Shown here: positions 753-23,270 of the stretch, piece by piece
How the letters are laid out: the number at the start of each line of letters is the position of its first letter
How positions within the stretch are numbered: the stretch's first letter is position 1
Program-made: the position numbers and the translations under genes
The notes under the pieces: model-generated
What the model saw: only the letters and a program-made list of their open reading frames with translations
What the model was told of the DNA's origin: nothing
The model's database searches: none
From: Desulfobacterales bacterium
Lineage (GTDB): Bacteria; Desulfobacterota; Desulfobacteria; Desulfobacterales; JAHEIW01
Reading direction: 5' to 3'
Length of the DNA: 52,980 bases
Assembly: GCA_030601425.1 (NCBI GenBank)
Contig: JAUVTR010000001.1
Span: forward strand, 1 to 52,980

Positions 753-1568
753 ATGATCGATATTTCAAAAATTAACTATTCAGTTCTAGATCGACCGGAG
801 ATACTGATGTTTCTGTTTCATCCGCGACCCGAATTCGGACGATCTATATCCTCATCTGACGAAGCCGACATCATGATACCGGTCGAAGCCGAAATTGGCG
901 TTGGGGCGCGATTTCATTTTTGTGATAAATCCGCCTGTAATATCCTTTTTTTTCACGGCAATGGGGAAATTGTCGCCGATTATGATGAATTCGGTCAGAT
1001 GGTTAATCAACTGGGGATCAACTTTTTAGCGGTTGATTATCGCGGTTACGGCCGTTCCACCGGACAACCCACTGTCAGCGCGATGATGCGGGACTGCCAC
1101 GTTATTTTCGATTATGTGATCCAATGGCTGCAAAAAAATGCTTATTTTGGCCCACTTATCCTCATGGGTCGATCCCTTGGCAGTGCATCGGTTCTTGAAT
1201 TAGCAGTTCATTATGCCCATCACATCGACGGTCTGATTGTTGAAAGTGGTTTTGCCTATGCCGGTCCATTATTGCAGCTTTTAGGAATCAATACCACAGC
1301 ACTGGGATTCGAGGAAGCTAAGGGATTTCGCAATATCGATAAGATCGCGTCTTTTAAAAAGACCACCCTGATTATCCACGCTGAACAGGACCATATCATC
1401 CCCTTTTCAGAGGGTCAGGCGCTGTTTGACGCGTGTGGAGCACCGCATAAATCACTGCTGAAAATTCCGGACGCAAACCACAATGACATCCTTATGCAAG
1501 GTCTTAAAGATTACATGGCTGCTATTCAGCAACTGGCAAATCAATTGAAGGTAAAAAAGGACAGATAA
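753..1568 (+). CDS. Alpha/beta-fold hydrolase
   Basis: 271 aa. HGNGE oxyanion-type motif and nucleophile elbow GRSLGS, with late D and H (ANHND) consistent with a Ser-Asp-His triad. AGGAG sits 8 nt upstream of the ATG. Confidence 0.8.
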   Translation: MIDISKINYSVLDRPEILMFLFHPRPEFGRSISSSDEADIMIPVEAEIGVGARFHFCDKSACNILFFHGNGEIVADYDEFGQMVNQLGINFLAVDYRGYGRSTGQPTVSAMMRDCHVIFDYVIQWLQKNAYFGPLILMGRSLGSASVLELAVHYAHHIDGLIVESGFAYAGPLLQLLGINTTALGFEEAKGFRNIDKIASFKKTTLIIHAEQDHIIPFSEGQALFDACGAPHKSLLKIPDANHNDILMQGLKDYMAAIQQLANQLKVKKDR

Positions 1569-1878
1569 GCATGATTGTGTCCGACACACCTCCGGGCTGA
1601 ATTGCCGGTTTCAGATGGATCAACCGACGCGATCATCGTAAATTTGATATATATTAAGCTGTTTACATATCTTATAAATAATAATCCATGCACGCCAACA
1701 ACCCCGCCACCGTTCTTCAACGAATTGCGCGACAATACCTGCCAGGTTAAAATTCTGCCGAATAGTCCCATTTTTCTATTTTTTCCTTAAGTTTATTTAA
1801 ATCTAAGACGATAATTGTCTATAGGTAAGATTGTTAGGAAATTTTGACGACTGTCGGAAGCAGCAGGGTTAATATCGT

Positions 1879-3102
1879 ATGGGTATAATTCACATCAATA
1901 AACTCAAACCGGGCATGGTTTTGGATGAAGCGGTCAAGGATATCAGTGGCAGATTGCTTCTGAAAAAGGGCAAAAATATCCAGTCAGCGCATATTAGAAT
2001 TTTTAAGATCTGGGGCGTAACAGAAGTCAATATCCGCGGAAATAATGGCAGTAAAAATACCTCTGACGGTAATCTGGATCCGGATAAGATCGCAAAAATA
2101 AAAGATAACACACAGAACCTGTTTCGGCATGCTGATTTGGAGCACCCCGCGTTAAAAGAAATATTTCGAATTTCAGTTGAGTTTCGCAGCCAATATAGTT
2201 TTCCGGAAAAAGAAAAGCAGGTTGATCTGGCGACAACCGAGTCCAAACAGGATACAGGTAATCACAATTTTCTGCAGGAACTGAATCAGGGAAACATTAC
2301 CCTGCCGGAGGTACCCTCAATCGTTTTTGAATTAAATGAGGTCATTGCCAACCCGTTATCATCGGCTGAAGATATTGCACAGGTGGTACACCGCAGCCCG
2401 AGTTTAACCGCACTTTTATTGAAAATAGTCAATTCGCCGTTTTACGGTTTCCCTTCTAAAATCGACAAAATTTCACTGGCGGTGACGTTGATCGGTACAC
2501 GCGAAATTTCGGGACTGGCACTCGGGATCAGCGTTATTTCACTGTTTAACAATATCCCAAAAGAAATACTCAGCATGCATTCGTTTCTGAGGCACAGCCT
2601 TGCGTGCGGCATTATTTCAAGAATTTTAGCGGCCCACAAAGGTCTCCCGCAGACGGAACAGTTATTCGTTTCCGGTCTTTTGCACGATTTGGGCCGTTTG
2701 ATTCTTTACAGCTATTTCCCGGAAGAATCGCTCAATATCCTAAGCCGGGCGCGATCAACAAATATGTTATTGTACCTGCAAGAAAATGATTCTCTAGGCT
2801 GCAATCACACTCACATTGTCAAGCAATTATTGCAACAGTGGAAGTTGCCGATGGTCCTTGAAAACAATGTGTTTTTTCACCACGATCCCTGTGAAGCGCC
2901 ACAACCGGTTCCCGCCATCCTGGTCCATCTGGCGGATATTATGACCAACGGTCTGGGAATCGGTACCAGCGGTGAGCGTTTTGTTCCGCCTCTGGATAAT
3001 AAAGCCTGGGATAGCCTGGGATTGTCGCCGTCCTGTTTTGATATTGTTGTTAAACAGGCGACCCATCAGTTTTTTGCATTAGAATCAATGTTGGAAATTT
3101 AA
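1879..3102 (+). CDS. HDOD-domain signalling protein
   Basis: 407 aa. The C-terminal 250 aa show the HDOD pattern (LPEVPSIVFELNEVIANP, SPSLTALLLKIVNSPFYG, LLHDLGRL, FFHHDP). Confidence 0.8.
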   Translation: MGIIHINKLKPGMVLDEAVKDISGRLLLKKGKNIQSAHIRIFKIWGVTEVNIRGNNGSKNTSDGNLDPDKIAKIKDNTQNLFRHADLEHPALKEIFRISVEFRSQYSFPEKEKQVDLATTESKQDTGNHNFLQELNQGNITLPEVPSIVFELNEVIANPLSSAEDIAQVVHRSPSLTALLLKIVNSPFYGFPSKIDKISLAVTLIGTREISGLALGISVISLFNNIPKEILSMHSFLRHSLACGIISRILAAHKGLPQTEQLFVSGLLHDLGRLILYSYFPEESLNILSRARSTNMLLYLQENDSLGCNHTHIVKQLLQQWKLPMVLENNVFFHHDPCEAPQPVPAILVHLADIMTNGLGIGTSGERFVPPLDNKAWDSLGLSPSCFDIVVKQATHQFFALESMLEI

Positions 3103-3109
3103 GGATTCC

Positions 3110-4876
3110 ATGAAAAACAATAACAGCTTTCATATGGATGCCAAAAAACTCTTGGCCCGCATCGATTATTTGGAAGAAAATCGTAGGTTTATCCAAAATG
3201 TTTTGGAAACGGCGCTGTCATTGGGCGATTTTCAGGAAAATATCAATAAGGGCTATGGATCCGAGTATATTTTGCAGGAAGCTGATAAACGAATCAACCG
3301 TCTAATTCCTTTCGAAGCCAATGCGCATTACATTGTAGACCAGGAAAAATCGGATTTCTCATTATCCGTATGCAATAAAGGCCACCTGAAATCGTTCATC
3401 AAGAATGAAGTCAACCACATGATCGACCAAGGTTATTTTGCCTGGGCGATAAGAGAAAGGCGCGGGGTTTTGATATCATCCAGCGATCATAGCTGGCGCT
3501 TTGTATTACATGTGATCGCCACCTATTCACGCACCCGGGGCATGTTCATCGGCCTGCTGCCGGATAAAAACCATACAATCCCCGATACGTCGCTGACCCT
3601 GTTATCCATTATTTTGCTCAATACAGCCAATGCCCTGGAGAGTCTTGAATTTTATTCTTTGCTGCGCAACCAAAATGAGACCCTTGAAAAAAAGGTCGAA
3701 GAGCGAACCAAAGAATTGGCTAAATATGAACGCCAGCTGCAACAGGTTCTAAAAATTCAAGCGATCGGCACCCTGGCGGGCGGTATCGCGCATGACTTTA
3801 ACAATATTCTATTTCCCATCGTCGGGTATACTGAATTGACTATGGATGAAGTTTCCGAAGACAGTGTCGCACACAAAAATCTTGAAGAAATTCTCAAAGC
3901 CGCGCATCGTGCCAAGAATCTGGTTCAGCAAATTCTGACGTTCAGTCGTCAGAGCGATCAGGAGCGCAAGCCGATAAAGGTACAAAGTATCATAACAGAA
4001 ACTCTCAGGCTTCTGCGGGCATCGATTCCGGCCTCTATTGAGATCATTCATAAAATACAAGACGATTGCGGCCATATTATGGGCGATCCCACCCAGATCC
4101 ATCAGGTCATCATGAATTTATGCACCAATGCTTATCAAGCCATGCAGGATAAAGGCGGCAAGCTGGAAGTGATTCTGACCGAAATCGATGTCGGCTACGA
4201 AGAAATGATCGATAAAGTCGGAATGCAGCACGGCAAGCATCTGAGACTATTAGTTAAAGACGAAGGATGTGGTATGGAAGCCTCGGTGCTGGACAGGATT
4301 TTCGAGCCGTATTACACGACTAAAGAACAGGGCAAAGGCACGGGTTTGGGATTATCTGTCATCCACGGAATTGTTAAAAACCACGGGGGCGATATCACCG
4401 TTAAGAGCACGCCGGGTAAAGGAACGATATTTCAGGTTTACCTGCCGCTGATCGAAGATGTTGACCCCGATGTAGAATTCGAATCCACCGATGGCGCGAC
4501 AAAAGGAGAGGAACGAATTCTACTGGTTGATGACGAAGAGCAAATTGTGGCTATGGAACAACAGATGCTCGAAAATTTGGGCTACCGGGTCACCGCCAGG
4601 ACTGACAGCGCGGAAGCCCTCAAAGTGTTTGCTGAACACCCTCAGGATTTTGACCTTGTGATCACAGATATGACCATGCCGCACATGACCGGTGATCAGC
4701 TGGCTCAAAAAATGCTGGATATTGAACCCAATATTCCTGTCATTCTATGCACCGGTTTTAACCAGGGCATTACCGAAGAAAAGGCTCTGGCAATGGGTAT
4801 TCAAAAATTTGTAATGAAACCGGTCGTAAAAAAGGAATTAGCCACCACGATTCGCACCGTGTTGGATCAAAACTAG
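3110..4876 (+). CDS. Hybrid sensor histidine kinase / response regulator
   Basis: 588 aa. H-box GGIAHDFNNIL, N/G boxes (NLCTNAYQAM, DEGCGM, GTGLGLS) and a C-terminal receiver (LLVDDEE..DLVITDMTMPHMTG..KP). Starts 8 nt after the HDOD gene. Confidence 0.9.
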   Translation: MKNNNSFHMDAKKLLARIDYLEENRRFIQNVLETALSLGDFQENINKGYGSEYILQEADKRINRLIPFEANAHYIVDQEKSDFSLSVCNKGHLKSFIKNEVNHMIDQGYFAWAIRERRGVLISSSDHSWRFVLHVIATYSRTRGMFIGLLPDKNHTIPDTSLTLLSIILLNTANALESLEFYSLLRNQNETLEKKVEERTKELAKYERQLQQVLKIQAIGTLAGGIAHDFNNILFPIVGYTELTMDEVSEDSVAHKNLEEILKAAHRAKNLVQQILTFSRQSDQERKPIKVQSIITETLRLLRASIPASIEIIHKIQDDCGHIMGDPTQIHQVIMNLCTNAYQAMQDKGGKLEVILTEIDVGYEEMIDKVGMQHGKHLRLLVKDEGCGMEASVLDRIFEPYYTTKEQGKGTGLGLSVIHGIVKNHGGDITVKSTPGKGTIFQVYLPLIEDVDPDVEFESTDGATKGEERILLVDDEEQIVAMEQQMLENLGYRVTARTDSAEALKVFAEHPQDFDLVITDMTMPHMTGDQLAQKMLDIEPNIPVILCTGFNQGITEEKALAMGIQKFVMKPVVKKELATTIRTVLDQN

Positions 4877-4954
4877 CGGTTTTGCGACAGCATACCTCTA
4901 ATTTGTAAACGATCTTTGGAGCTCACCGTTCGCCTCACAAATACAGATGCTCGG

Positions 4955-5003
4955 TCCTGGGTTCTGGCATCTGGCTGCTGGTCTCTGGCTGCTTGTTCCC
5001 CGT
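4955..5003. repeat. In-phase heptad tract, NNCTGGC dialect
   Basis: tcctggg ttctggc atctggc tgctggt ctctggc tgcttgt tccccgt: 7 consecutive heptads upstream of the 83-aa ORF. Confidence 0.75.
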
Positions 5004-5068
5004 GTTGACCTCAATGTTGTTTTCAATTATGAAACACAGCATATTCAATTACAAGGAGCAGCTGAAAA

Positions 5069-5320
5069 ATGACCATTCACTCTCATAATTTTGTGGAAAC
5101 TTACAAAGGCCTGGTGGGTTTTGGTGCAGATCGAAATACAGATGAAAACACGGTCATATACTATCTTCAGAAATTTTCGGATGACCGGCTGATGAAAACG
5201 ATCATAAAACGCCTGCCAGACGAGGAGTTATCAGAGATATTTTTATTGATGACCCGGCTTCTAAAAAACCATCTCACCAGTTCCGAGTACCACCAAATCT
5301 TCTTAAAAGAGGAACCTTAA
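5069..5320 (+). CDS. Hypothetical 83-aa protein
   Basis: ORF with AAGGAG 9 nt upstream of the ATG. I recognise no family. It is flanked on both sides by heptad-periodic non-coding tracts. Confidence 0.5.
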   Translation: MTIHSHNFVETYKGLVGFGADRNTDENTVIYYLQKFSDDRLMKTIIKRLPDEELSEIFLLMTRLLKNHLTSSEYHQIFLKEEP

Positions 5321-5324
5321 GCTC

Positions 5325-5506
5325 GTTACTGGCTTCTCGTCACTGGCAACTACTTGATACAAAAAGCCAGCTGCCCATTCGTTAAAAGCTAGTGGCAGAC
5401 GGCCCGCCGTAAGAAGAAAGCAGTAAGCTGCAAGGAATCAGAAACCAGTATCCTGGAGCTAAAAGCCAAAGACAAGGTGCCAGAAGCAAGTGACAAACAC
5501 AGGAGG
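5325..5506. repeat. Spacer built of 26 in-phase heptads (CACTGGC / GCCAGAA dialects)
   Basis: Cutting 5325-5506 into 7-mers puts G at position 1 in 16 of 26 units (gttactg gcttctc gtcactg gcaacta ... gccagaa gcaagtg). The 3' part (5435-5503) is the complement type of 4955-5003. Confidence 0.75.
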
Positions 5507-5600
5507 GGGGACGTGCTAACTAAAAAACAGTTGGTCCGATATGCAGATGTGCTGATATGTCGGCTGTAATGAATCGGTTTTTTGCAAAGACGCGAAATTA

Positions 5601-5972
5601 TCACGCACTGATAGCGGATTTGGATGGATTATTTGCTACTTTTTTTACCGACTCCACCAAATCTAGCAGTGGAAACGGTTTGGGTAAAACGACATCGAAG
5701 CCCGAATCCTGAATAAGCCAGGGCGTCCCTGAAATGCCGATAATCGGAATGGAATTTTTATGAGAATTGCGAATATGTCGAACCACGCCTTTGCCATCAA
5801 GCCCCGGCATGCGAAGATCGGTAATCACGATATCAAAGCTGCCATCGTCAAACTTTTGAATACCTTCATAACCATCGGCTGCTAATTCAACTTGATGTCC
5901 GAATTTTGTTAAGGCTTCTTCGATCACGCGCAAGATACCTTTTTCATCATCGATAACTAAAATGGTGCACAT
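5601..5972 (-). CDS. Single-domain response regulator (CheY-like receiver)
   Basis: 123 aa. ILVIDDE..DIVITDLRMPGLDG..LPKPF receiver signature with no output domain. Confidence 0.85.
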   Translation of the reverse strand: MCTILVIDDEKGILRVIEEALTKFGHQVELAADGYEGIQKFDDGSFDIVITDLRMPGLDGKGVVRHIRNSHKNSIPIIGISGTPWLIQDSGFDVVLPKPFPLLDLVESVKKVANNPSKSAISA

Positions 5973-6513
5973 GATTCCTTCCCCAAAAGCAGTTTGATGT
6001 TTAAAATCTTACTGACTTTCTATTTATCATACTCAAGAACAGGACGCCTGTCAACAATATGTTGTGGACATTATTTTTCAAAACACAATATATGGACATT
6101 TCGAGGAAATTAAACGGCTTTGGCGGTGCAGATCCAATCGAAATCCACTGGCAGCAGGCCATCGTCAATACACTTATATTTGGATAAAGTACTGCAGATG
6201 TCAAGCCGGATTATAACGATTTTTAATTTCCGGATGGAGCAGGTTATCAACAACATGCATCTTGTTGAAATTTAAATATAAAAAATAAGCTTGGTCGATT
6301 AACTGATTAAATTCTATTACTTATGGAATGTTTCATTTTTCTTAAGCATTTTAGTGAGATCCCAAGTTATCAACACGTTATGAACAATTTGGGTTGAGAA
6401 ACCAAACTAGTAAAATCGCTCTTTTTTAATTGTTTTCTAACGGAATGGAAATGATGGGCCAAATGGCGTAAGAAACTATATTCGAAGCCTAGCGGGCAGG
6501 AAACCTTAAAAAA

Positions 6514-6539
6514 AGCGCCGAAGCAACGCTTCCGGCGCT
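6514..6539 (-). terminator. Intrinsic terminator downstream of the miaB-nuclease operon
   Basis: AGCGCCGAAGC / GCTTCCGGCGCT stem (11 bp with one bulge). On the minus strand it is followed by TTTTTTT (complement of the A-run at 6507-6513). Lies about 100 nt past the stop at 6648. Confidence 0.7.
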
Positions 6540-6647
6540 ATTTTATAAACATATTTGAGCTGAAATGATAAGCACAACCCAATCGTAATTGTCAAATGCA
6601 AAAGTAAGGTGAAGGTTTAAATTCGTGATTTGTACCCTTGATGAAGC

Positions 6648-7154
6648 CTAAATCTTGAACTTGCCGAAATCTTCCGGTGAAAGGCCTTCCAGATAGTCAG
6701 CCCATTTTTTGCCTTCTTCGCTGGTATCTAACACCTCTGCTTCACCGTCCCCCATTTTCGATTTTTGCATGACCTCGTCCGCCACATAGATAGGGGCGTC
6801 ATATCGAAGAGCCAGGGCAATCGCATCGCTGGGACGCGCATCCATTTCAAAATTTCCATCCTTGGATATAAAATGGATTTTAGCGTAAAAAGTGTTATCC
6901 TTCAAATCACATACTTCAATCTTTGAAATTGATATATCTAATCGTTCCGTGAATTTTTTAAAAAGATCGTGTGTCATGGGACGTTCGTATTTAATATTTT
7001 GGAGGGCCGATGCAATTGAAGTCGCTTCGAGCAATCCAATCCATATCGGAATAGACTGGTCGTTTTTCTCAGATTTCAATATGATAATCGGCGTGTTCGA
7101 AGCCGGATCCATTGTCAAACCCGCTATGCTCACCTTATGCAGCATAATTTTCAA
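6648..7154 (-). CDS. Bifunctional nuclease family protein (DUF151/BFN domain)
   Basis: 168 aa. PIWIG..EA..I, RPMTHDL and ARPSDAIALALR motifs are typical of the BFN domain. Its start overlaps the miaB stop by 20 nt. Confidence 0.75.
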   Translation of the reverse strand: MKIMLHKVSIAGLTMDPASNTPIIILKSEKNDQSIPIWIGLLEATSIASALQNIKYERPMTHDLFKKFTERLDISISKIEVCDLKDNTFYAKIHFISKDGNFEMDARPSDAIALALRYDAPIYVADEVMQKSKMGDGEAEVLDTSEEGKKWADYLEGLSPEDFGKFKI

Positions 7155-8553
7155 CTCCTTTCAACCTTCCAGCTGAGGGTTCTGCGTTTATCGCTTTGCC
7201 AAACAGTGAATGTGAAAAGGCTTTATCAATGCGAACACCAATCAGTTTGCCGGAAAGGCTTTCAGTGTCGGCCGGGAGCTCATCCATATAAAAATTTACA
7301 ATTTTGTTTGTGATGGTACGACCCATCCACTGCAGCGCTTGGCCAGTGCTTTCCGGTTCACCGGATACCTGTTTTTTACTCAGACCATCGGTCAGGATCA
7401 ACTGAGTGGAACCGACCAAGACCTTATTTTTTCTTCTTGTAAATTTCTCCTGTAAATCCAAGAGGGTCTGCAGCCGTTCTCTCTTTAGCGGCTCGGAAAT
7501 CTTATGAGGCAGTTCCACAGACGGGGCGCGGGGACGATCAGAATATTGAAAGGCAAATAGCCCGTCATATTCCACCGTTTTTACGAGTTCCAAGGTTTGT
7601 TCAAAATCGGCCTCGGTTTCTCCCGGAAAGCCGACAATCATATCCGATGTGATCGCTATCTCAGAACAAGTATCCCGCAGTTTCGCCACTTTGTCAAGAT
7701 ACTGCTCTTTGGTGTATTTGCGGTTCATGCGCTTTAAAACCCTGTTTGAGCCTGACTGAACCGGCAAATGAATATGGGGACACAATTTATCAAGATCCCG
7801 AAAAGCCGCGATAAGATTCGAGCTTAAATCCTTAGGATGAGATGTGGTAAATCGAATTCTTAAAAGCCCTTCGATTTCATTTATCCTTGCTAAAAGTTCA
7901 GGAAACATGTCCAAGTTTTGTTTTTTACCATAACTGTTTACATTTTGTCCCAGCAGGGTGACCTCCCTTACACCGTTTTCAACCAGCGCCCGGATTTCTC
8001 GAAGGATGCTTTGGGGCTCACGACTGGTTTCTCTTCCACGGACAAAAGGTACCACGCAGTAAGCGCAATAGTTGTCACAACCCCGCATGATGGTAACGAA
8101 TTTGGAGACTTGACTTTCAGCCTGGGTACCGGCAAGAAATTCAGGCATATCCGGGGCTTCATCCATATGCACATCAACAATCCGGCATCGTCTCGCTTCG
8201 ATTTGTTGAATCATGCCCGGAAGCCTGTCAATAGCCTGCGTACCAAATACAAAGTCAATGCAGGGCATGCGTTCCAGAATTTTTTGGCCTTCCTGCTGAG
8301 CCACACAACCGCCGACTCCGATTATCAGTCGTCTTTTATTGCGCTTCATCCTTGCAAGCCGGCCCAGTAAGCTAAAGGCTTTTTGTTCAGCTTTGGCCCG
8401 GACAGTACAGGTATTAACGATAATCAAATCAGCCCTGTCCATCGAAGCGGTCTGTTCACATCCTAAAGTTGCCAGCCGTATGGCTATTTGCTCTGAATCA
8501 TAAACATTCATCTGGCAACCGATTGTATGCAGATAAAAATACTTCGCATTCAT
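7135..8553 (-). CDS. miaB: tRNA-2-methylthio-N6-dimethylallyladenosine synthase
   Basis: 472 aa. N-terminal UPF0004 cysteines (GCQMN..), radical-SAM CDNYCAYC motif and a C-terminal TRAM region. Confidence 0.93.
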   Translation of the reverse strand: MNAKYFYLHTIGCQMNVYDSEQIAIRLATLGCEQTASMDRADLIIVNTCTVRAKAEQKAFSLLGRLARMKRNKRRLIIGVGGCVAQQEGQKILERMPCIDFVFGTQAIDRLPGMIQQIEARRCRIVDVHMDEAPDMPEFLAGTQAESQVSKFVTIMRGCDNYCAYCVVPFVRGRETSREPQSILREIRALVENGVREVTLLGQNVNSYGKKQNLDMFPELLARINEIEGLLRIRFTTSHPKDLSSNLIAAFRDLDKLCPHIHLPVQSGSNRVLKRMNRKYTKEQYLDKVAKLRDTCSEIAITSDMIVGFPGETEADFEQTLELVKTVEYDGLFAFQYSDRPRAPSVELPHKISEPLKRERLQTLLDLQEKFTRRKNKVLVGSTQLILTDGLSKKQVSGEPESTGQALQWMGRTITNKIVNFYMDELPADTESLSGKLIGVRIDKAFSHSLFGKAINAEPSAGRLKGVENYAA

Positions 8554-8607
8554 GAAGAGTAAGGCTTTCGTTGCCGGGAAATCGAAGCTACCTTGATATG
8601 GAGATAT

Positions 8608-8841
8608 TTAATCGTGACCTGGCGGCCCGGGCATTACAGGCTCAATCAGGATGTCCTTTTTTAAATACTGCAAAATTTCCGCTACCTGCTTTTGGCAGCC
8701 CGGTGCGATGTGAAACGAAATAACCCCCCGGATCGGGTCTTCTGTTTTAATGGTGGCAATACCATCATAGGCTTCCAAAATAAATTTTAGAAAAGCAATT
8801 TCTCTGCGATCCACCCGGTAATACTTTTTTAGTGATTTCAA
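8608..8841 (-). CDS. DUF4911-like small protein
   Basis: 77 aa. The REIAFLKFILEAYDGIA pattern is characteristic of DUF4911. Lies upstream of and co-oriented with miaB. Confidence 0.55.
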   Translation of the reverse strand: MKSLKKYYRVDRREIAFLKFILEAYDGIATIKTEDPIRGVISFHIAPGCQKQVAEILQYLKKDILIEPVMPGPPGHD

Positions 8842-8871
8842 AATTTCTTTACTGTCACAAAACCATTTAGT

Positions 8872-9046
8872 AGGTTTCAGGTTTCGGGTGTCAGGCGTCA
8901 GGTAAACAGACGACAGAGGTCAGAGGACAGAGGACAGAAAACAGAAGATACAGTTGTCAGAATTGACAGTGCTGAAACCTGAACACTGAAACCTGACACC
9001 TGAAACCTCCTTATTCCTGACACCTGACACCCGAAACCTAAAACCT
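8872..9046. repeat. Long heptad-periodic hairpin element A (GGTTTCA/GGTGTCA plus GACAGAG dialects)
   Basis: 8875-8951 holds 11 in-phase heptads ending in CAG(G). 8970-9046 holds about 11 heptads of the complementary CTGA type. The outer arms 8872-8902 and 9016-9046 pair at 29 of 31 positions. Confidence 0.9.
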
Positions 9047-9266
9047 AATTTTTGCTGAAACCTGAAGCCATAATAAAGGCATATTAAACTTTCGTTCCGG
9101 CAAGCGTTTCGGAGACGAGCAAAACCGCTATCAGGCGAGAGATGATGGTATTAAAAGACGGTCTATTGAGTATAACCACATCTCCATTATTTGCAATAAA
9201 AAACACCTTGTGCATTTGATCAATTTTAGGTTGTCCAATCTGCGGTTATACGGTATAGGGCCGTCA

Positions 9267-10985
9267 ATGGAAAAAAAATGGCAAATACTGCAACCGGACG
9301 CCGAGGCCGTAAACGAATTGAGTGCAAGATTGCATTGCCATCCGATCACTGCGACTATTCTTCTCAACCGAAACTTGACATCCGCGCAGGAAGCCTCAAG
9401 CTTTGTCGCCGCCTCTTTGAGCAAGGTTCGCTCACCATTCAGCCTAAAAGATATGAACGGTGCGGTTCAGCGCATCTATCGTGCAATTATAGATCATGAA
9501 AAGATCTTAATCTTTGGTGATTACGATGTTGACGGCATCACCGCCACGGCTGTACTTTTGGATTTTTTCCGGGAAATCGGAGCCCGGGTATCCGCCTATA
9601 TCCCCCATCGAATAAAAGAAGGATACAGCCTGCAGACGCATCATATCCATGACTACGCTCTGCCCAACCGGATCCAATTGATTATCACCGCGGACTGCGG
9701 TTCCGGCAGCCATGATGCCATAATCGCAGCCCTCAATTCGGGGATCGATGTGATTATTACCGATCATCACACGATCTCTGAAAAAATACCTCCCGCTGCG
9801 GCCGTACTGAATCCAAAGCGTCATGATTGTCAGGCCGGCATGCAAATGCTGGCCGGTGTTGGCGTGGCCTTTTCACTCTTGATCGGTTTGCGGAAATATC
9901 TGCGAGATCTTCATTTTTGGAAAGACCGGCCGGAACCGAATCTCAAAAATCTTTGCGATCTCGTCGCTCTGGGTACGATCGGTGATAGGGTTCCCCTTGT
10001 TGAAGAAAATCGTATTTTTTCAAAAGTCGGACTTGCCCTCATAAATTCTTCAACAAGGCCCGGGTTGAGCGCCTTGCGCAAGGTGGCCGGTATTGCGAAT
10101 GAACCGACAGATGCCGAAGATATTGCTTTCAGACTGGCCCCACGATTAAACGCCGCAGGTCGCATGGATCATGCCTCGGTAGCGTTGAAGTTGCTGACAA
10201 CTGGAGACAACACCACCGCCCGGCAGCAGGCCGAATACCTGAATAGCTTGAACAGCCGACGTCAAGAACAGGAACGTTTGATCCTCGATGCTATTTTTTC
10301 AGACTTTCAGCGCTACCCGGAACGCCTCAAAAAAAGGACCCTTGTATGCTGGCATCCCGAGTGGCATCAGGGCGTAATAGGAATTGTCGCATCCCGTATC
10401 ATGGAAAGGTATTTCCGACCGGCTGTCGTGATTGCAATTGATGGCGAAATTGGCAAGGGGTCGGCCAGAAGCATCCCCGGACTGGATTTATTCAACGCTT
10501 TGCAGGACTGTCAACATTGCCTCGAAAATTTTGGCGGTCATTCGATGGCGGCCGGATTGACCATCAGAGCCAAAAAATTAGTAGAATTCCAACACGCTTT
10601 TGAAGAAGCTGTTACCCAAATGACCCGACCCGATGATTGGATACCCAAAATGACCATCGACGCCGAAATCAATTTCTCCGATATATCGGACAACCTGATC
10701 AATGAGATCGAGACCTTAAGCCCCTTTGGTAACGGAAACCCGGAACCCGTATTTATGGCTCGCGACGTTAAAGTGCTATCTTCAAAAATTGTGGGGAAAA
10801 ATCATCGCAAAATGGTGCTGGCTCAGGACGCCGGCCGTGTGCAAAATACGTTTCAAGCGATCCGGTTCAATGCCGACGGTCGAATGCAAACCGAGACAGC
10901 GTTCACCCAAATCGCTTTTCGGCTGCGGTGGAATCGCTGGAACGCAAATAAAATTTCTCAGCTGATTATTGAGGATGCCCGCTAG
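9267..10985 (+). CDS. recJ: Single-stranded-DNA-specific exonuclease RecJ
   Basis: DHH motifs (GDYDVDGITA, ITADCG, ITDHH) and DHHA1 (GGHSMAAG). I chose the ATG at 9267 (MEKKWQIL), because the ORF-track start at 9210 adds an unconserved leader. Confidence 0.92.
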   Translation: MEKKWQILQPDAEAVNELSARLHCHPITATILLNRNLTSAQEASSFVAASLSKVRSPFSLKDMNGAVQRIYRAIIDHEKILIFGDYDVDGITATAVLLDFFREIGARVSAYIPHRIKEGYSLQTHHIHDYALPNRIQLIITADCGSGSHDAIIAALNSGIDVIITDHHTISEKIPPAAAVLNPKRHDCQAGMQMLAGVGVAFSLLIGLRKYLRDLHFWKDRPEPNLKNLCDLVALGTIGDRVPLVEENRIFSKVGLALINSSTRPGLSALRKVAGIANEPTDAEDIAFRLAPRLNAAGRMDHASVALKLLTTGDNTTARQQAEYLNSLNSRRQEQERLILDAIFSDFQRYPERLKKRTLVCWHPEWHQGVIGIVASRIMERYFRPAVVIAIDGEIGKGSARSIPGLDLFNALQDCQHCLENFGGHSMAAGLTIRAKKLVEFQHAFEEAVTQMTRPDDWIPKMTIDAEINFSDISDNLINEIETLSPFGNGNPEPVFMARDVKVLSSKIVGKNHRKMVLAQDAGRVQNTFQAIRFNADGRMQTETAFTQIAFRLRWNRWNANKISQLIIEDAR

Positions 10986-11150
10986 TGTCAGGGTTCAGAG
11001 TTCAGAGGACAGAAGTCAGAGGTCAGAAAACAGAGGTCAGATGACAGAAGACAGATGGTAAGAACTGTAGGATGGAGCACCTTTTCTGACGTCTGTATCT
11101 TCTGTTTTCTGACATCTGTACTCTGTCCTCTGACACCTGACACCTAAAAC
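10985..11150. repeat. Heptad-periodic hairpin element B (GTCAGAG/GACAGAA dialect)
   Basis: Ten exact-phase heptads at 10987-11056. The reverse-complement arm is 11086-11150, about 80% complementary with one heptad indel. The loop is 11057-11085. It starts on the last base of the recJ stop codon. Confidence 0.9.
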
Positions 11151-11297
11151 GCTGGCACCTGTTTCCTGAAATTGCTGTCATCCAGCAAAAAACTTTAGGT
11201 ATATGTCGGGCGAATATTTTGCTTGCAAACAGGCGTGTTACCCATTATGATGCCACCACAATTCCGGTACTAATCATTTCAACCAGAAGGTGAAACC

Positions 11298-11720
11298 ATG
11301 GCTAAGGTATTTCGGCCAAGCACCCGCGAGGCCAGTATCCTATCCAAAATTGAATCTCAAAAAGAGTATGAACGCAAACGCGCAATTAATGCCATCAAGG
11401 ATTGCATCGATCCTCTATCCAATGCAATTGCGATGAAACTGGTAGACAGCAAACTGGTGGAAACCACCAACAAAAATGCGCTTGAAGAGCAAATCAAAGG
11501 GTGTCTGGAAAAATTGGGGCGCGCCGACGACTTTGAGATCGATTATCAATTGGCGCCGGTTCGAAACGTTGTTCCGCAGCCTCATATTGTCAGTCTATTT
11601 CTGACGTCCTTTGTCATTGAAAAGCTTATTAAGCATAAAGACGTAATAGATATTTTTGGATCAGATGAAGATATCTATCTGAATATCCATCAGCAAGTTA
11701 AAAAATTCCTACCAACATAA
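11298..11720 (+). CDS. Hypothetical 140-aa protein
   Basis: ORF with GAAGGTGA upstream. Its stop overlaps the start of the next gene (TAATG). No family recognised. Confidence 0.5.
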   Translation: MAKVFRPSTREASILSKIESQKEYERKRAINAIKDCIDPLSNAIAMKLVDSKLVETTNKNALEEQIKGCLEKLGRADDFEIDYQLAPVRNVVPQPHIVSLFLTSFVIEKLIKHKDVIDIFGSDEDIYLNIHQQVKKFLPT

Positions 11721-12742
11721 TGCGTCCGCGTTTTCACCCCAGGTTGATCAACGGGCCAAATGATGACCCCGGTTTATACGTCCCTTTTCTATTTGAAAAC
11801 CGGGCGATAATCTTTGACCTGGGTGATACCCATCCGCTGTCCACCAGAGATCTGCTCAAGATCAGCCACGCGTTCATCACCCACACGCATATCGATCATT
11901 TTATCGGTTTTGACCGAATTCTGCGCATCTTCTTAGGTCGGGAAAAAAACCTCCATCTGTACGGACCACAGGGATTTCTTAAAAATGTAGAAGGGAAATT
12001 GGCTGCCTACGCCTGGAACCTAGTTAAAAATTATAAATACAAACTTGGGCTGCATCTGACAGAAGTCCATCGCGATTATCTGCTGACCCGCGAGTACCTG
12101 TGCCAGAATGAATTTGTGCCGATCCACAATGCCGTAAAGCACGCCTTTAATGAAGTTTTATACGAAGAGCCTGCATTTAGGGTTTCGGCTGCTATTTTGG
12201 ACCACAGCATCCCCTGCCTGGGGTTTGCGATCAAAGAGCGATTCCACGTCAATATCAACAGAGACAGAATCGCTGCCTTGGAGCTTCACACCGGACCCTG
12301 GCTCACCGAATTTAAACAGGCGTTGTATGATGGCAAGGATGCTAAATCTAAATTTGAAGTTAAATCCGGCAAAGAAAAGATTCATCGATTTCGGCTGGGC
12401 GAACTGGCCGATCAGATTGCCATGATAACCCCGGGCCAGAAGATTACTTACATCGCCGATGTGGCATACAACTCAATAAATAAGAATAAAATTGTTTCCC
12501 TGGCAAAGGACTCCGATCACCTGTTTATTGAGGCCGCGTTTCTGGAAGCGCACAAAGATATTGCCGCTGAAAAAAATCATCTCACCGCCCGGCAGGCCGG
12601 CGCCCTGGCCGCAATTGCCCGGGTAAAGCAGTTTACTATTTTTCATTTTTCACCGCGCTACACCGATCAGGCGCATTTACTGCAGGAAGAAGCCAGGAAG
12701 GCCTACGAAAGTATAATGAGCCCGTCAATGGAGCAGAGCTGA
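11720..12742 (+). CDS. MBL-fold metallo-hydrolase (RNase Z-like)
   Basis: 340 aa. HTHIDH metal-binding motif, later D/H ligands and a C-terminal FHFSPRY typical of the RNase Z/BN-like branch. Confidence 0.8.
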   Translation: MRPRFHPRLINGPNDDPGLYVPFLFENRAIIFDLGDTHPLSTRDLLKISHAFITHTHIDHFIGFDRILRIFLGREKNLHLYGPQGFLKNVEGKLAAYAWNLVKNYKYKLGLHLTEVHRDYLLTREYLCQNEFVPIHNAVKHAFNEVLYEEPAFRVSAAILDHSIPCLGFAIKERFHVNINRDRIAALELHTGPWLTEFKQALYDGKDAKSKFEVKSGKEKIHRFRLGELADQIAMITPGQKITYIADVAYNSINKNKIVSLAKDSDHLFIEAAFLEAHKDIAAEKNHLTARQAGALAAIARVKQFTIFHFSPRYTDQAHLLQEEARKAYESIMSPSMEQS

Positions 12743-12820
12743 GGTCGGGGAGGCGGAAAGATGGAAACAGGCACAAATCTCAAATCATAGCGCCTCATAC
12801 CCAATTGCCAACTTCCAGCC

Positions 12821-14194
12821 TCAATCATCCACCTGATGTCCCATTTGGATCTGGATCAGGGCCAGCGGCCGGTCATCCGTATTTTCGATGCTGATGTAAC
12901 TCTGGCCTGTAAAGGTTGCAGACTGGCCGTTTTTTATGATTTGGCTCTGCTGATTGGCGCTGACCTTGGCGTTGCCGTCGAGGACGACCAGGTGGTGGGT
13001 ACTTTGGGGGGTAACGTCTAACTCCATACTGGCGCTCGGGTTCAGGACGAGCCTGGCAGTTTTGACATCACCTTTATCTTCGAGCACGGTTCGATTGCCC
13101 CAGGGGAAAATGACAGTTCGGTGCCGATGATACTCGGTGCGACCCTTTTGTTTTAGAATGGTGACAATTGATTTGACATCCCGGCTGTGCTCCATATCCG
13201 AAACAAAAATGGAGTCTGGTGTTTCCACCACAACCAGATCTTGCAGATGATTGACTGCAATGAGGCGTTCCTGGCCGAGGATAAAACAGTTTTCTGTATT
13301 TTCAACAAGGACATCCCCGTCAATCACATTTTTGTTTTCATCCTTGGGCAGGTAATCATAGAGGGATTTCCAGGAACCGATATCACTCCAGCCAAAATCC
13401 GAAGGCAGCACAACACCTTTTTCTGTTTTTTCCATAATGGCGTAATCGATGGAGATATCGGTCAGTTGATCGTAATCTTCTCTGGATATGAGTTTATGCG
13501 GATCAAAAATAGCTTCCATCTGTTTGAGTAATTCGGGCTGGTAGGTTTTAAATTCGCATAAAATGACCGAGGCTTTAAAGGCAAACATACCGCTGTTCCA
13601 GAAAAAATTGCCGGCTTTAATATATTTTTTGGCGGTTGGCAAATCGGGTTTTTCAACGAATCGCTTGAGCGCCAGGGCGCCATGTGACACTTTCTTTCCC
13701 CCTTCGACATATCCATAACCCGTCTCAGGATAATGGGGTTGAATTCCAAAGGTAACGATATACCCGTCGTTGGCTAGCTTTATGGCGGCATTGAGCCTGT
13801 CGTGGAAGCCGTCCAGATCTTTGATGACATGATCGGCCGGAAAAACGCATAGAATTGCATCCTTTTCAAAGGCCAGTATATGTAAGACGGCCAGTAAAAT
13901 TGCCGGAGCCGTATTGCGGCCGCTGGGCTCGCCAATCAATTTACCTTCCGACTTAAGGCCGAGATTTTCAATATGTTTGGCGGTTTCATGAAAATGCTGC
14001 TCGCCGCAAACCACTTTGACGTTTTCCGTATCCAGCACGGGCGGTAACCGTTTAATGGTGCCCTGCAGAAGGGAGTCATCCCCGATGAATTTGACCAGCT
14101 GTTTGGGATAGAGTTCTCTGGAGACCGGCCACAGTCGGGTCCCGGTTCCGCCCGCCAGCAGAATCGGATAAACCGTAAGGTCTAAATCCGTCAT
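12821..14194 (-). CDS. manC: Mannose-1-phosphate guanylyltransferase / mannose-6-phosphate isomerase
   Basis: 457 aa. N-terminal LAGGTGTRLWP nucleotidyltransferase motif and a C-terminal cupin (type II PMI) region. Confidence 0.9.
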   Translation of the reverse strand: MTDLDLTVYPILLAGGTGTRLWPVSRELYPKQLVKFIGDDSLLQGTIKRLPPVLDTENVKVVCGEQHFHETAKHIENLGLKSEGKLIGEPSGRNTAPAILLAVLHILAFEKDAILCVFPADHVIKDLDGFHDRLNAAIKLANDGYIVTFGIQPHYPETGYGYVEGGKKVSHGALALKRFVEKPDLPTAKKYIKAGNFFWNSGMFAFKASVILCEFKTYQPELLKQMEAIFDPHKLISREDYDQLTDISIDYAIMEKTEKGVVLPSDFGWSDIGSWKSLYDYLPKDENKNVIDGDVLVENTENCFILGQERLIAVNHLQDLVVVETPDSIFVSDMEHSRDVKSIVTILKQKGRTEYHRHRTVIFPWGNRTVLEDKGDVKTARLVLNPSASMELDVTPQSTHHLVVLDGNAKVSANQQSQIIKNGQSATFTGQSYISIENTDDRPLALIQIQMGHQVDD

Positions 14195-14253
14195 AAGACC
14201 CTCAATGTTTAGATTTTAAACGGGTGAATCATGCAAAATAATCAGGTAAAAAG

Positions 14254-14370
14254 AGTGCCTAAAATGAACTAAAATGAGCTAAAGTGCCTAAAGTTAAGGT
14301 GTCGCTTCGCTCCATCTTTTTAAATAAAAAAGACAGAATTCCTTAACTTTAGGCATTTTAGATCACTTTT
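14254..14370. repeat. Hairpin element C (GCCTAAAAT dialect) with a conserved core
   Basis: Arms are 14254-14299 and 14341-14370, whose inner 15 bp (tgcctaaagttaagg / ccttaactttaggca) are perfect. The core 14300-14340 is gtcgcttcgctccatctttttaaataaaaaagacagaatt. Confidence 0.85.
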
Positions 14371-14403
14371 AATCCCGCCTTATGGCGCTATCATTGGCGG
14401 GAC

Positions 14404-17400
14404 TCACTTGCTTTTGTAGGCGCTTCTCTTGGGTTCCGTCTTTGCTGCCATACACTGGGTTTCAACGGCGTTATAGCCCAGTAACTCATTAACTTCGTGG
14501 ATTAAGGCCCCACCGGCCTTTAGTTTCAAAGAATCCGGCAAGGCCACAATTGAGTCGGTGTTCTCAAGACTTCGCAAATGCAGGTAAGCGCGGCACCCAC
14601 CCGGATGTCCTTGTAATATTTCATGGAGTTTTGCTAGGGCCTCGCGATCGGTGCGCGAGATTTCCAGATTAAAATGGATGCTGGCCGTCCAGGTCTCCTC
14701 GGCCTTATCCATGGCGACAACCTTTTCAGCCAAAATTTTAACCGATTGTTCATCCTTTTGTACCTGTCCCTGAATCAAAACCGGATTATCCTCCACGAGC
14801 AGATCCGTCACACTGGCATACACCCTCGAAAACACCGTGGCCTCAACCGCACCGTGCAGATCCTCAATGGTGACAAAGGCCATCAAATCACCCCTTTTTG
14901 TTTTGATAATTTTGGTGCTGCGAATCAGCCCGCCGATTCGAACGGCGCCGCCGTTTGTTAACTCTTTAATGGAGATCGCATTGGCATTGGTAAATTTGTC
15001 GAGTAAATCCTCATAGCGCTTCAGGGGGTGTCCGCTGATGTAAAACCCAAGGGATTCTTTTTCAAAAGCCAGGCGCTGATTTTCCGACCATTCCTCGATT
15101 TCCGGAAAGGCCGGTGCGTTGATAACTTGTGGATTTACCGTACCGTCAAATAGCCCTATTTGAGGATCGAGGCGTTCCTTTTGCACGCGCTGGCCGTAAT
15201 CCAACGCATCTTCCAGAGACGCCATCATCTGGGAGCGGTTAAAACCGGTAGAATCAAAAGCGCCGCATTTAATGAGCGATTCAACCACCCGTTTATTTAC
15301 TTTTTTTAAATCTACCCGCTCACAAAAATCAAAAAAAGACGAGAACCCTTCGTCTCCACGGGACTCAATGATGGCCTCGATGGCACCCTCACCCACATTC
15401 TTGACCGCTACCAAACCGAACCGGATCTTATCACCATAAACATTAAAGGCTTTATCGCTGTAATTGATATCCGGTGGCAAAACCTCAATCCCGTGACTGC
15501 GACACTCAACGACGTATTTTACCACACCATCGGTGGAATGCATTTCACTGGTCAGCAATGCGGCCATAAATTCGACCGGAAAGTGGGCCTTGAGATAGGC
15601 TGTTTGATAGGCAATCAGTGCATAGGCCGCGCTGTGGGATTTGTTGAACCCGTACCCTCCGAATTTTTCCATCAGAGAAAATATCGGTGCGGCCTCATCG
15701 GAGGCAATCTCGTTTTCAGTGGCTCCATTGACAAAGCGCTCCCGGTGCTCGGCCATGATCGCTTGAATCTTTTTGCCCATGGCCTTGCGCAGATCGTCGG
15801 CTTCCGCCATAGAATAGTTGGCCAGATCGTTGGCTATTTTCATGACCTGTTCCTGATAGACGATCACGCCATAGGTTTCTTTTAAGATCGGCTCCAGCTG
15901 AGGCAAAAGATACTCCACCTTCTTTTTACCATGCTTGCGCGCCACATAATCGTCAATCATGCCGCTTTCCATCGGCCCGGGGCGATAAAGAGCCACCAAA
16001 GCGATAACATCATCAAATAATTCCGGTTTGAGCCGGACGAGCAAATCCTTCATTCCCGGACTTTCAAGCTGAAACACTCCGGTGGTATCTCCGGCAGACA
16101 GAAGGCGGTAAGTGTCTGCATCGGTCAACTCGATGTTCTCAAGATCCGGCGGGGTTTTCTGCTGGCCGGCGATTAGGGAAAGAGTGTTGGCAATGACCGT
16201 CAGGTTGCGCAGGCCCAGAAAATCAAATTTTACCAGTCCAATTTTCTCGACCATCTTCATATCGTACTGGGTCACCACCTCACCTTTTTTCCCGCGGTAA
16301 AGCGGCATATAGTTGACCAGGGGCTCGTCGGCGATGACCACACCGGCGGCATGGGTCGATGCGTGTCTTGGAAGGCCTTCTAAAACCCGGCAAATTTTGA
16401 TGAGCTCATCGATTTCAGGCTTTTGGCGCGCGAGTTCGCGCAGCCTGGGTTCCCGTGCCAGAGCCCCGTCAAGACTGATATTTAAGATATCGGGAACCAT
16501 TTTGGCGATCGCATCCACCTCCGCCAGCGGAATATCCAACGCACGACCGACATCCCGGATAACCGCCCGGGTTTTCAGTTTCCCAAAGGTAATAATCTGG
16601 GCGACATAATCCCCGCCCCCGTATTTGTCGACCACATATTTGTAAACATCTTCCCGGCCGTCGATGCAAAAGTCAACATCGATATCGGGCATGCTCTTGC
16701 GGGCCGGGTTAAGGAAACGCTCAAAAATAAGACCATGGGCGATGGGATCCAGATCGGTAATTCCCAGGCTATAAGCCACCAGACTGCCGGCGGCCGAACC
16801 CCGCCCGGGCCCGACGGGTATATCATTTTCTTTGGCGTAACGAATAAAATCAGCAACAATCAAAAAATAGCCTGAAAATCCCATATCGCGTATGACCGAT
16901 ATTTCATATTCCAGGCGATCGCGATAAAGCGCTTCATCTATTTGCGGATCCTTTTCTTTAATCCGCTGTATTCGCAGCTCAAATCCTTGCCGGACATTTT
17001 GGGCAAATAGCTCATCGCTGCTCAACTCTGACTCATCGGCAAAGCGTGGAAAGTGATATGTATTAAAATCAAAGTCGATATGACATCGGTCGGCAATATC
17101 CACGGTGTTGCTCAGCGCCCCCGGATAGTCCTTAAACGCGGCGTGCATCTCAGCTTTGGATTTGAAATAAAGCTGATCGGTCCGAAACTTAAGGCGGTCT
17201 TTATCCTGAATCGTTTTGCCGGTTTGAATGCACAGCAGCACATCATGCGCGCGCACATCTTCTTTACTCAGATAATGACAGTCATTGCTGGCCACCAGGG
17301 GAATCGACAGCCGTTGGCTGATATCTAAAAGCGTCTGATTGACCTGCTCTTGCTCTATGATCCCGTTGTTTTGTACTTCCAGAAAAAAATTATTATCCCC

Positions 17401-17910: not shown

Positions 17911-18131
17911 AAATCACTCGTTTCAAAATTGAATTTAGCTTGAAAAATTAAAGTTTAAATAAAGATCAATCATTTGTGAGGGCAAATGGGCAAGACTTCT
18001 ATTTATACCATAAATGAGATTTTTTTTCGATGCTCGATTTTCTGCTAAAAGACGAAGGCGCATAAACGGATTAAAAGCTAGCATGCGAGCATTTTAAGAA
18101 GCCCATAACGAAACTATTGCGCATTAGATAA

Positions 18132-18209: not shown

Positions 18210-18233
18210 AGAATGGCATTTTTGAGATGGGTT

Positions 18234-23266: not shown

Positions 23267-23270
23267 AGTC

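Follow-up and report, generated by a model that had tools for sequence, protein, structure and literature searches.

The 52,980-nt stretch of a Desulfobacterales genome analyzed here (contig JAUVTR010000001.1, positions 1 to 52,980, forward strand; referred to as the window) carries a run of 7-nt repeats at 8872-9046, between the divergently oriented DUF4911-miaB operon and recJ. This run, named element A, is a real, very stable hairpin with arms of 7-nt repeats. On balance, and with somewhat better than even confidence, we favor that it represents one copy of an abundant, fast-changing kind of intergenic repeat-armed hairpin, a microsatellite palindrome resembling either the repetitive extragenic palindromes and bacterial interspersed mosaic elements (REP/BIME) or foldback elements, and evolving by slippage. 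Such hairpins would consist of an inverted pair of heptanucleotide microsatellite arrays, with a CAG core in the 5' arm and a CTG core in the 3' arm. The odd layout of element A would then be due to its history and not to design: an outer GGTGTCA-type pair would enclose the left-arm remnant of a nested GACAGAG-type hairpin, and a 38-nt tandem duplication would subsequently have given rise to a second right arm.

Read from the sequence, the heptads are in phase across 8872-9046, with an internal second right arm. The outer left arm (8872-8902, inverted repeat I1) consists of about 4.4 heptads of the GGTTTCA/GGTGTCA type with a CAG/CGG core, followed by a GACAGAG-type block of 6-7 units at 8903-8950. 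The earlier note had counted 11 heptads at 8875-8951 that change repeat type midway in a common phase. Ten 7-nt frames (8875-8944) were confirmed, while the eleventh (8945-8951, AAGATAC) is degenerate; the change of repeat type is present, and the common phase is lost there. The CAG core is found at 8878, 8892 and 8899, then at 8907, 8914 and so on to 8942, with a step of +1 nt at 8903, which looks like a junction of two arrays rather than gradual drift. The same junction, CAG-T/C-AAACAGA, was also found in the related loci L018 and L002. At the tip of the predicted fold lies a small palindrome, TGTCAGAATTGACA (8955-8968). The 36-nt center (8940-8975) was unique to the element A locus and its orthologues in a search of the window plus 20 loci. 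On the right side, about 11 continuous heptads had been claimed for 8970-9046. Heptads are indeed present, however in two blocks with a phase offset of 3 nt: the inner right arm (8972-9008, 5.3 units of CTGAAAC/CTGACAC) and the outer right arm (9016-9047, about 4.4 units of CCTGACA/CCCGAAA/CCTAAAA). They are kept apart by the 7-nt spacer CCTTATT (9009-9015), which belongs to the 38-nt higher-order unit (direct repeat D3).

Pairing of the outermost 31 nt at 29 positions was recovered as a 32-nt stem, 8871-8902 with 9016-9047, of which 30 positions (94%) are complementary. Both mismatches are C.A on the plus strand and hence G.U on minus-strand RNA, where the stem of 32 bp is uninterrupted. The internal right arm can pair with the left arm as well, at 80% over 35 nt (8977-9011) or 87% over 23 nt (8986-9008). 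The two inverted repeats, I1 and I2, have 113 and 73 nt between their arms. For the GACAGAG block (8903-8950), said to be partnerless inside element A, weak partners only were found. Its proposed match to the arms of two sister hairpins of the window, elements B and K, was borne out: it is complementary to their right arms (11082-11142 and 30404-30462) and also to the right arm at 23371-23420, with predicted duplex energies of -57, -54 and -54 kcal/mol. Folded as RNA, the 211-nt region reached -78.6 kcal/mol on the plus strand (z = -7.2) and -91.6 kcal/mol on the minus strand (z = -9.1), and none of 200 shuffles was as stable. Four in-phase CAG heptads matched 28 times in the window, with 0.00 matches expected. 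Tandem Repeats Finder detected period-7 arrays at 8872-8903, 8906-8938, 8972-9008 and 9016-9039 and a period of 38 nt (score 95, 2.3 copies) at 8978-9066, the origin of the second right arm. Rfam 15 covariance models at gathering score gave no match in the whole window, and a tRNA scan found nothing at element A. Since the same layout was present in an independent assembly (L008), and Logan contigs of run X1 equal the window up to 9000 and from 9002, element A is not an assembly artefact.

In the two right arms the earlier note had seen mutually exclusive folds, and it had proposed to compare their energies. The alternative fold was forced by blocking the outer right arm and reached -53.5 (plus) and -49.3 kcal/mol (minus), weaker than the free folds by 25 and 42 kcal/mol, respectively. 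Duplexes of the arms alone gave -43.0 (plus) and -38.7 kcal/mol (minus) for the inner versus -55.4 and -63.4 kcal/mol for the outer arm. As a designed feature the idea found no support, the two arms being copies of a 38-nt tandem repeat; with an extra right-arm copy in L008, how many alternative arms there are is a matter of length polymorphism. An attenuator-like leader switch, in which the left arm pairs with either right arm and thereby controls read-through into DUF4911-miaB, appears very improbable to us. Two mutually exclusive pairings do exist, element A lies within a probable leader, and the inner arm would be made first on the plus strand. However, the inner-arm fold is much the weaker one, the number of right-arm copies varies (one in L005, two in the window, three in L008), and neither a U-tract terminator nor a leader peptide was found in a scan of 8700-9350, so that a designed switch is unlikely. 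Likewise, a G+C-rich stem with a U-tract and a comparable antiterminator, as in intrinsic terminators and attenuators, were not found at element A. Furthermore, relatives carry quite different hairpins at this slot, L001 lacks element A, and on minus-strand RNA the single partner is made after both right-arm copies, which leaves no room for ordered competition.

The composite history became visible in comparison with relatives. Genome and metagenome scans yielded 19 recJ loci with 76-99% RecJ identity; the closest genomes were Desulfobacterales metagenome-assembled genomes (76-83% RecJ identity), and the window sequence itself was found in cold-seep and marine-sediment metagenomes. The slot between the DUF4911 start and a conserved promoter block holds a repeat-armed hairpin in nearly all loci, with a variable repeat type: GGTGTCA in the window, L008, L005, L020 and L017; GACAGAA in L018 and L002; GGTTCAA, often with outermost GGTGTCA...TGACACC, in L003, L012, L014 and L019; and TTTAGGCAC in L011, L015 and L016. 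The nested form is complete in L018, where a GACAGAA/TTCTGTC hairpin that has both its arms lies between outer GGGTGACA (GGTGACA).../...TGACACC heptads. Its junction GTAAACAGACGACAGA equals window 8902-8917, and the inner right arm of the nested hairpin is absent from the window. L005 has a simple hairpin whose sole right arm holds 30 nt identical to window 8979-9008. L018 and L005 together explain the layout of element A: an outer pair is combined with one half, the left, of a nested hairpin, and the right arm is duplicated. The suggestion of a nested insertion of one element into another thus fits the relatives, and the GACAGAG block is likely, judging from the aligned loci, the left arm of an inner hairpin whose right arm was lost. 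The slot 3' of recJ, occupied by element B in the window, behaves alike, with arrays 0-5 nt past the stop codon in every lineage. At neither recJ slot does the repeat type track RecJ identity. The loop of element B (11049-11090; L004 1275-1314; L015 2706-2745) is 87.5% identical at 76-79% RecJ identity, a pattern that points to a constrained loop or to intergenic alleles exchanged between lineages. The closer relatives L010, L012 and L013 have other elements at this slot.

Conspecific strains, with flanks 98.2-100% identical to the window, showed how fast the locus changes. In L001, with flanks of about 100% identity, 225 bp are missing between two GTTTCGG direct repeats, one inside the left arm (8880-8886), the other outside the hairpin, 58 nt beyond element A and past a flank conserved in other lineages (9105-9111). 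The deletion also takes this flank, AAGGCATATTAAACTTTC. L001 was considered as an ancestral empty site, and this was rejected because the conserved flank is gone as well; the allele arose secondarily, by a deletion spanning the hairpin. In L008 (overall identity 98.6%) the right-arm repeat is longer by one 31-nt unit, and a C-to-T change (T at 8896) removes one stem mismatch and perfects the stem. In L007 and L009, two independent assemblies with flanks of 98.2-98.7% identity, 109 nt of the core are reversed at 99.1% identity, about 100 nt are inserted in the CTGTCCT block, and the immediate flanks of the reversed core differ from those of the window. A simple in-place flip is therefore insufficient; either remodelling took place along with a flip, or the unit was inserted anew. 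A phase-variable invertible switch, with the heptad arms as inverton repeats and a flip altering miaB or recJ expression, would account for the presence of both core orientations in conspecific strains, each in two independent assemblies. We nevertheless consider it highly unlikely, as 8872-9046 contains no promoter-like site and the window no recombinase gene, and the two orientations also differ in the flanks outside the arms. Element B is polymorphic, too: its left arms in the window and L008 differ by 35 nt (five heptads), its right arms by only 7 nt, and in L007 and L009 its right arm is replaced by other elements. These length differences and the arm loss indicate that arm symmetry is not maintained.

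Folding of every intergenic region of at least 70 nt revealed about 14 long intergenic hairpins in the 53 kb, element A included, with arms of 6-10-nt tandem repeats. Their periods are 6, 7, 8, 9 or 10 nt, the repeat types differ, and fold z-scores reach down to -6.7. Element B (10986-11165) begins at the recJ stop codon and is composed of 10 CAG heptads, a loop and CTG heptads, the outermost being of the GGTGTCA/TGACACC type. A further sister (23268-23420) fills the whole spacer from the aminotransferase stop to the cmk start with GGTGTCA x4 ... CTTCTGA x5, and element K (30329-30462) extends from the namZ stop codon to the RNase H gene; several hairpins, these last two among them, occupy their operon spacer precisely, with the stop codon on one side and the ribosome-binding site on the other. 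In the four-gene operon for a 2-oxoacid:ferredoxin oxidoreductase (24715-27667, minus strand) every spacer has its repeat-armed hairpin (24583-24655, 25319-25416, 26256-26345 and 27750-27835), each with its own repeat type (octamer CACGAAAT in the first, heptamer AATTGAA, others). Further hairpins were found at 14254-14365, 18130-18209 (hexamers), 28830-29115 (nonamers, with a hairpin nested within), 41255-41350, 49395-49475 and 51330-51455. The window is core chromosome, with dnaE, guaB, rpsA, cmk, alaS, recA, rpoN, gap, tpiA and secG, and no transposase, recombinase, invertase or RAYT was found among its 48 open reading frames (ORFs). In four cold-seep and marine metagenomes, summed contig depth over 8864-9051 was 1000-20000, and contig depth on the flanks 4-46. 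Hundreds of other contigs match this interval, many with the same arms and different loops. Heptad arrays of this type are consequently extremely abundant in cold-seep and marine communities.

Some observations on the other repeats of the window deserve mention. The direct arrays TAAATCTGCG x3 (43629-43657) and TCCGCAGATT x2.9 (50985-51012), 7 kb apart, are reverse complements of each other, so the same repeat type also occurs unpaired. Beside the hexamer hairpin, CATTTTTGAGATGGGTTC (18200-18233) is one terminus of an inverted-repeat element GAACCCATCTCAAAAATG ... CATCTTTGAAATGGGTTC, complete downstream of recJ in L002 (5713-5860). A non-periodic core, …CCCGTCGAGAGCCTC…GGGTCGAACGA…GGAGC.A.GCGAC.CCA…, with CTAAAGTG/TTTAGGCAC arms recurs at about 87% identity at unrelated slots of different lineages (window 28876-28990 and 14290-14345; L011 2189-2266; L015 572-726; L016 717-751) and is, by its distribution, probably a dispersed, mobile family. 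Another element, 200 nt long, has CTGGCTT/CTGGTCT heptads as arms and a core that is conserved; in L017 it is found inside the GGTGTCA hairpin upstream of recJ, in L007 and L009 downstream of recJ. A lone array of this type is present at window 4957-4987. In four metatranscriptomes, RNA contig depth was 43-308 at 25310-25610 and 6-101 at 28621-28921, with the adjacent genes at 0-8 in three RNA-Seq runs and higher in X29. This reflects either many transcribed copies or unusually stable hairpin fragments. For expression upstream versus downstream of the sister elements coverage was sparse, and some repeat families were very abundant in RNA.

Element A could be a non-autonomous mobile element, similar to a MITE (miniature inverted-repeat transposable element), a REPIN or a foldback transposon, whose hairpin is moved in trans by a transposase encoded elsewhere and inserts in either orientation, with a preference for existing hairpins or particular intergenic slots. 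We regard this as rather unlikely, although part of the data is in its favor: the 109-nt core found reversed at 99% identity with different immediate flanks, repeat types at the two recJ slots that do not follow RecJ identity, the very high copy number, and elements nested in one another (L017, L018, element B of L007). Families with a non-periodic core do occur at unrelated slots; window 28876-28990 has counterparts of about 87% identity at the slot 5' of recJ in L011 and L015, and L017 604-803 matches L007/L009 4408-4595 at 80% over 188 nt. On the other hand, no target-site duplication was found, the flanks ...CATTTAGT| and |AATTTTTG having no common direct repeat. The sole "empty" allele, L001, is a deletion including conserved flank and not a precise excision. 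Within the window and 20 loci the centers of A and B occur only at orthologous positions; an internal sequence common to unrelated loci, as in a MITE, was thus not seen for 8940-8975, although other repeat-armed families do share cores. Moreover, the 53-kb window has no transposase gene, and the recurrence of the arms with many different loops in metagenomes is better explained by recurrent array formation than by copy-and-paste. In our reading, the arms are made and resized by slippage, while some members or slot alleles move by transposition or inter-lineage recombination. Intrastrand triplex, retron, CRISPR and telomere-like repeat addition were also considered and dropped, as the arms are not homopurine mirror repeats and there is no reverse-transcriptase or cas gene nearby; the RVT_3 match at 30479-31120 is an RNase H domain.

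A further common property is arm polarity. In every pair of the window and of the Desulfobacterales loci, whichever strand is read, the 5' array is of the CAG type and the second of the CTG type. The same order was found for viral contig pairs (45:3 with at least 3 units, 20:0 with at least 4 units) and for class-3 pairs of Geobacter metallireducens (8/8). The 5'-CAG...CTG-3' polarity is hence common to Desulfobacterales, Geobacter and many phage contigs whose G+C content differs widely, the array-bearing viral contigs ranging from 37 to 70% G+C. Over all repeat types, the left third was purine-richer than the right third in 13 of the 14 window hairpins. In the viral contigs, 106 stretches of GGTGTCA x2.3 and 53 of GACAGAG x2.3 were counted, compared to 16 and 22 for two control permutations of the same composition. 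Single arrays beside start codons of viral contigs had CTG in the sense strand in 25 versus 8 cases, a trend only, as naive ORF calls placed 116 of 199 arrays "inside" ORFs in high-GC contigs. Phage-like contigs among L022-L127 carry GGTGTCA/CCTGACA arrays and pairs, often ending a few bases before an ATG (e.g., L071 4585-4600, 5777-5792 and 8838-8853; L034 4100-4151), and one of them (L031/L090/L099) also has GGGGATT and other heptad arrays.

The polarity may avoid early exposure of a C-rich arm to Rho, may reflect a weak pyrimidine-rich RNA:DNA hybrid during stem closure, or may stem from a strand-specific fold-back origin or from oriented protein binding. According to the last idea, the arrays are oriented binding sites for a sequence-specific DNA- or RNA-binding protein, with the hairpin as by-product of their convergent orientation. 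This corresponds to the idea of a global regulator or IHF/HU site in Geobacter; in its RNA version, a C/A-rich leader array would act on translation. Strict convergent polarity, the excess of GGTGTCA and GACAGAG relative to control heptads in unrelated viral contigs of 50-70% G+C, the sense preference at start codons (from crude ORF calling), and a period-21 superstructure in several arrays (3 heptads, about 2 DNA turns) are in line with it, as are precedent hypotheses (PMC2700814, PMC4679880). Still, we judge it quite improbable. One genome has many repeat types (6, 7, 8, 9, 10 nt) in a single hairpin layout, which would call for a large number of proteins; from lineage to lineage, the repeat type of one slot is freely swapped; unit number and arm symmetry differ between strains; and we know of no binding protein for any of these heptad-repeat families. 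More generally, CAG/CTG heptad arrays might be cis-elements of a conserved machinery, either an oriented factor that binds or translocates on nucleic acid or a strand-specific repeat-generating process, a proposal that we consider unlikely. If it were true, the hairpins would be functional units, such as bidirectional barriers to transcription or RNA decay or translation-tuning leaders, and nearly every lineage would keep a hairpin at a given slot while its sequence turns over.

The gene context named in the earlier note was confirmed by Pfam. DUF4911 (8608-8814, minus strand, GTG start at 8814) is the first gene of its unit, followed by the MiaB-type radical-SAM enzyme (7135-8553, minus strand); RecJ is encoded at 9267-10985 on the plus strand. 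Element A starts 58 nt upstream of the DUF4911 start codon. A sigma-70-like site, TTGCAA-16-TATACT (9196-9169, minus strand), points through element A toward DUF4911-miaB; it is a consensus match only and falls in a block nearly invariant across 17 lineages. The scan of 8700-9350 detected no promoter-like or terminator-like site inside element A. If 9196-9169 is the operon promoter, the operon would have a leader of about 350 nt, with element A probably midway along it. From miaB, RNA contigs continue via DUF4911 into the left arm, to 8901 (X25), 8888 (X26) and 8900 (X29). The recJ RNA depth of 0 in X25 and X26 argues against DNA carry-over. DNA contigs break at the same repeat positions, so the ends of the RNA contigs are not RNA 5' ends. 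For the right flank (9036-9300) no RNA contigs were found in the four metatranscriptomes. A one-off degenerate repeat, to be assumed if no transcript covered the element and no other copy shared its composite layout, can be set aside because RNA contigs enter the left arm and the layout is present in L008 and, reversed, in L007 and L009. The block of about 110 nt just 5' of the recJ ATG (9146-9266), nearly invariant in all 17 lineages compared, can also be folded (GACGGTC...GTATAACC / GGTTATAC...GGCCGTC) and may serve as a divergent promoter region for both sides, as the leader of recJ or as a small RNA. To the right of element A, at 9100-9140 and in the corresponding flanks of L005, L007, L011, L015, L017 and L020, a small hairpin (GAGCTGATA...TATCAGC / AGCTG...CAGCT) was observed; it is present in most lineages with variable sequence, possibly with compensating changes.

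Taken as a slippage-driven microsatellite palindrome, element A would gain or lose 7 nt and 31-38 nt at a time through slipped-strand mispairing or unequal exchange; it would also change by hairpin-associated deletion between short direct repeats, by orientation change, and by replacement or nesting by related families. As the arms are periodic, a stem can re-form in another register after gain or loss of whole units. Transcribed with the operon, the element would form a very stable stem-loop, with 32 uninterrupted pairs on minus-strand RNA, and would likely behave as structured leaders and intercistronic hairpins generally do, influencing RNA processing or stability or forming a roadblock. 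We are aware of several results that do not fit smoothly with this explanation. The fixed CAG-then-CTG polarity is not predicted by neutral slippage plus a plain hairpin, and the 5-7-fold excess of GGTGTCA arrays over two control heptads in viral contigs hints at sequence-specific use. Both recJ slots are filled in nearly every lineage despite the turnover of repeat types, which could mean selection for presence, and the loop of element B is conserved between rather distant lineages. The changed flanks of the reversed core in L007 and L009 require more than a flip in place. A test for selection on RNA pairing gave no support, with the sense strand folding better in 5 of 12 co-directional elements. 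Finally, the RNA evidence consists of assembled contigs which break within the repeat and cover the left arm only.

Among the long simple repeats of bacterial genomes, heptanucleotide microsatellites are the most over-represented. To our knowledge, neither function nor origin has been established for them in more than 30 years, be it for the short tandemly repeated repetitive (STRR) sequences or the repeats of Xanthomonas, Geobacter and Beggiatoa. The recJ locus offers a clear natural experiment, one intergenic slot traceable across strains and species that shows unit gain and loss, higher-order duplication, hairpin-spanning deletion, orientation change, nesting and repeat-type replacement, while slot occupancy and strict arm polarity persist despite those changes. 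What merits follow-up is the comparison of this slot between strains and relatives and the polarity rule; the latter, seen in three unrelated data sets, is a testable constraint for any model of origin or function. In practical terms, these elements break short-read assemblies of cold-seep Desulfobacterales and can mimic regulatory RNA structures in genome scans.

Among known repeat systems, the REP, BIME and REPIN families of enterobacteria and pseudomonads (PMC3116915, PMC2817692, PMC3733652) provide the best analogy in function and behavior. Element A and its sisters share with REP/BIME the high copy number, the extragenic imperfect palindromes, which lie in operon spacers and at 3' ends and are transcribed together with the adjoining genes, the clusters and mosaics, and the presence/absence polymorphism between strains. 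The stem-loops of REP/BIME reportedly affect mRNA decay or translation termination. In contrast to the fixed 20-40-nt REP palindrome, the arms of element A are internally periodic and of variable length. A REP palindrome carries a conserved GTAG or CGTC tetranucleotide at its end (PMC3733652), whereas the arms of element A begin AGGTTTCAGG and end CCTAAAACCT without such a tag, and no RAYT (IS200/IS605-like Y1 transposase) is encoded in the 48 window ORFs. The eukaryotic Foldback/Galileo transposons have long inverted termini of short tandem repeats (PMC3573991); tandem-repeat inverted ends of very variable length and a link to inversions are common features, but these transposons are kilobase-sized and transposase-dependent, so the analogy is one of architecture only.

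Cyanobacterial STRR heptamers reportedly occur as direct arrays. STRR units in heterocystous cyanobacteria are CCCCAGT, TTGGTCA and CAACAGT; units and host of element A differ, and it does not belong to the STRR. TAACTGA repeats of Beggiatoaceae, cyanobacteria and Bacteroidetes, also with a CTG core, include one inverted pair among 170 sets and otherwise form direct arrays (MacGregor, 2015, PMC4679880). Tandem heptanucleotides that are overwhelmingly intergenic, often just upstream of start codons and patchy across phyla connect both groups with our elements, while the inverted pair is the rule in the window hairpins. In Xanthomonas, GGGAATC heptamer arrays form 70-75 convergent pairs per genome, able to adopt stem-loops, and repeat length differs between species with the single or paired type being kept (Rehm et al., 2015, PMC4692102). 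Intergenic heptamer microsatellites in convergent pairs are thus shared; unlike the heptads of element A, the Xanthomonas unit is G-rich and G-quadruplex-forming, with one repeat type per genome and no nesting or higher-order repeats reported. An exact-string literature search for the heptad arrays returned only unrelated human papers and no paper quoting them.

Geobacter metallireducens has tandem octamers, nonamers and heptamers in arrays that are paired on opposite strands, and its class 3 consists of five units of MTYCTGA with a CTG core, intergenic and with a spacer of 70-115 nt, for which IHF/HU sites were guessed (2009, PMC2700814). This role is a proposal only and offers no mechanism to share with element A. 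Octamer and nonamer versions accompany the heptamers in the same genome in both cases, and paired intergenic tandem heptads on opposite strands with the CAG type first are common to class 3 and element A, which has at least 3 tandem intergenic heptads, an opposite-strand array within about 70-120 nt and CAG-then-CTG polarity. The CTTCTGA units of the sister at 23382-23416 fit the consensus MTYCTGA, whereas the CCTGACA/CCTGAAA arms of element A do not. Compared to Geobacter, the Desulfobacterales arrays reach a greater length (up to 10-12 units), are composite or nested and occur in far larger numbers, in a cold-seep host. The kind of element has therefore already been noted in Geobacter and Xanthomonas; new here are the host group, a relative of cold-seep sulfate reducers, and the unusually composite form.

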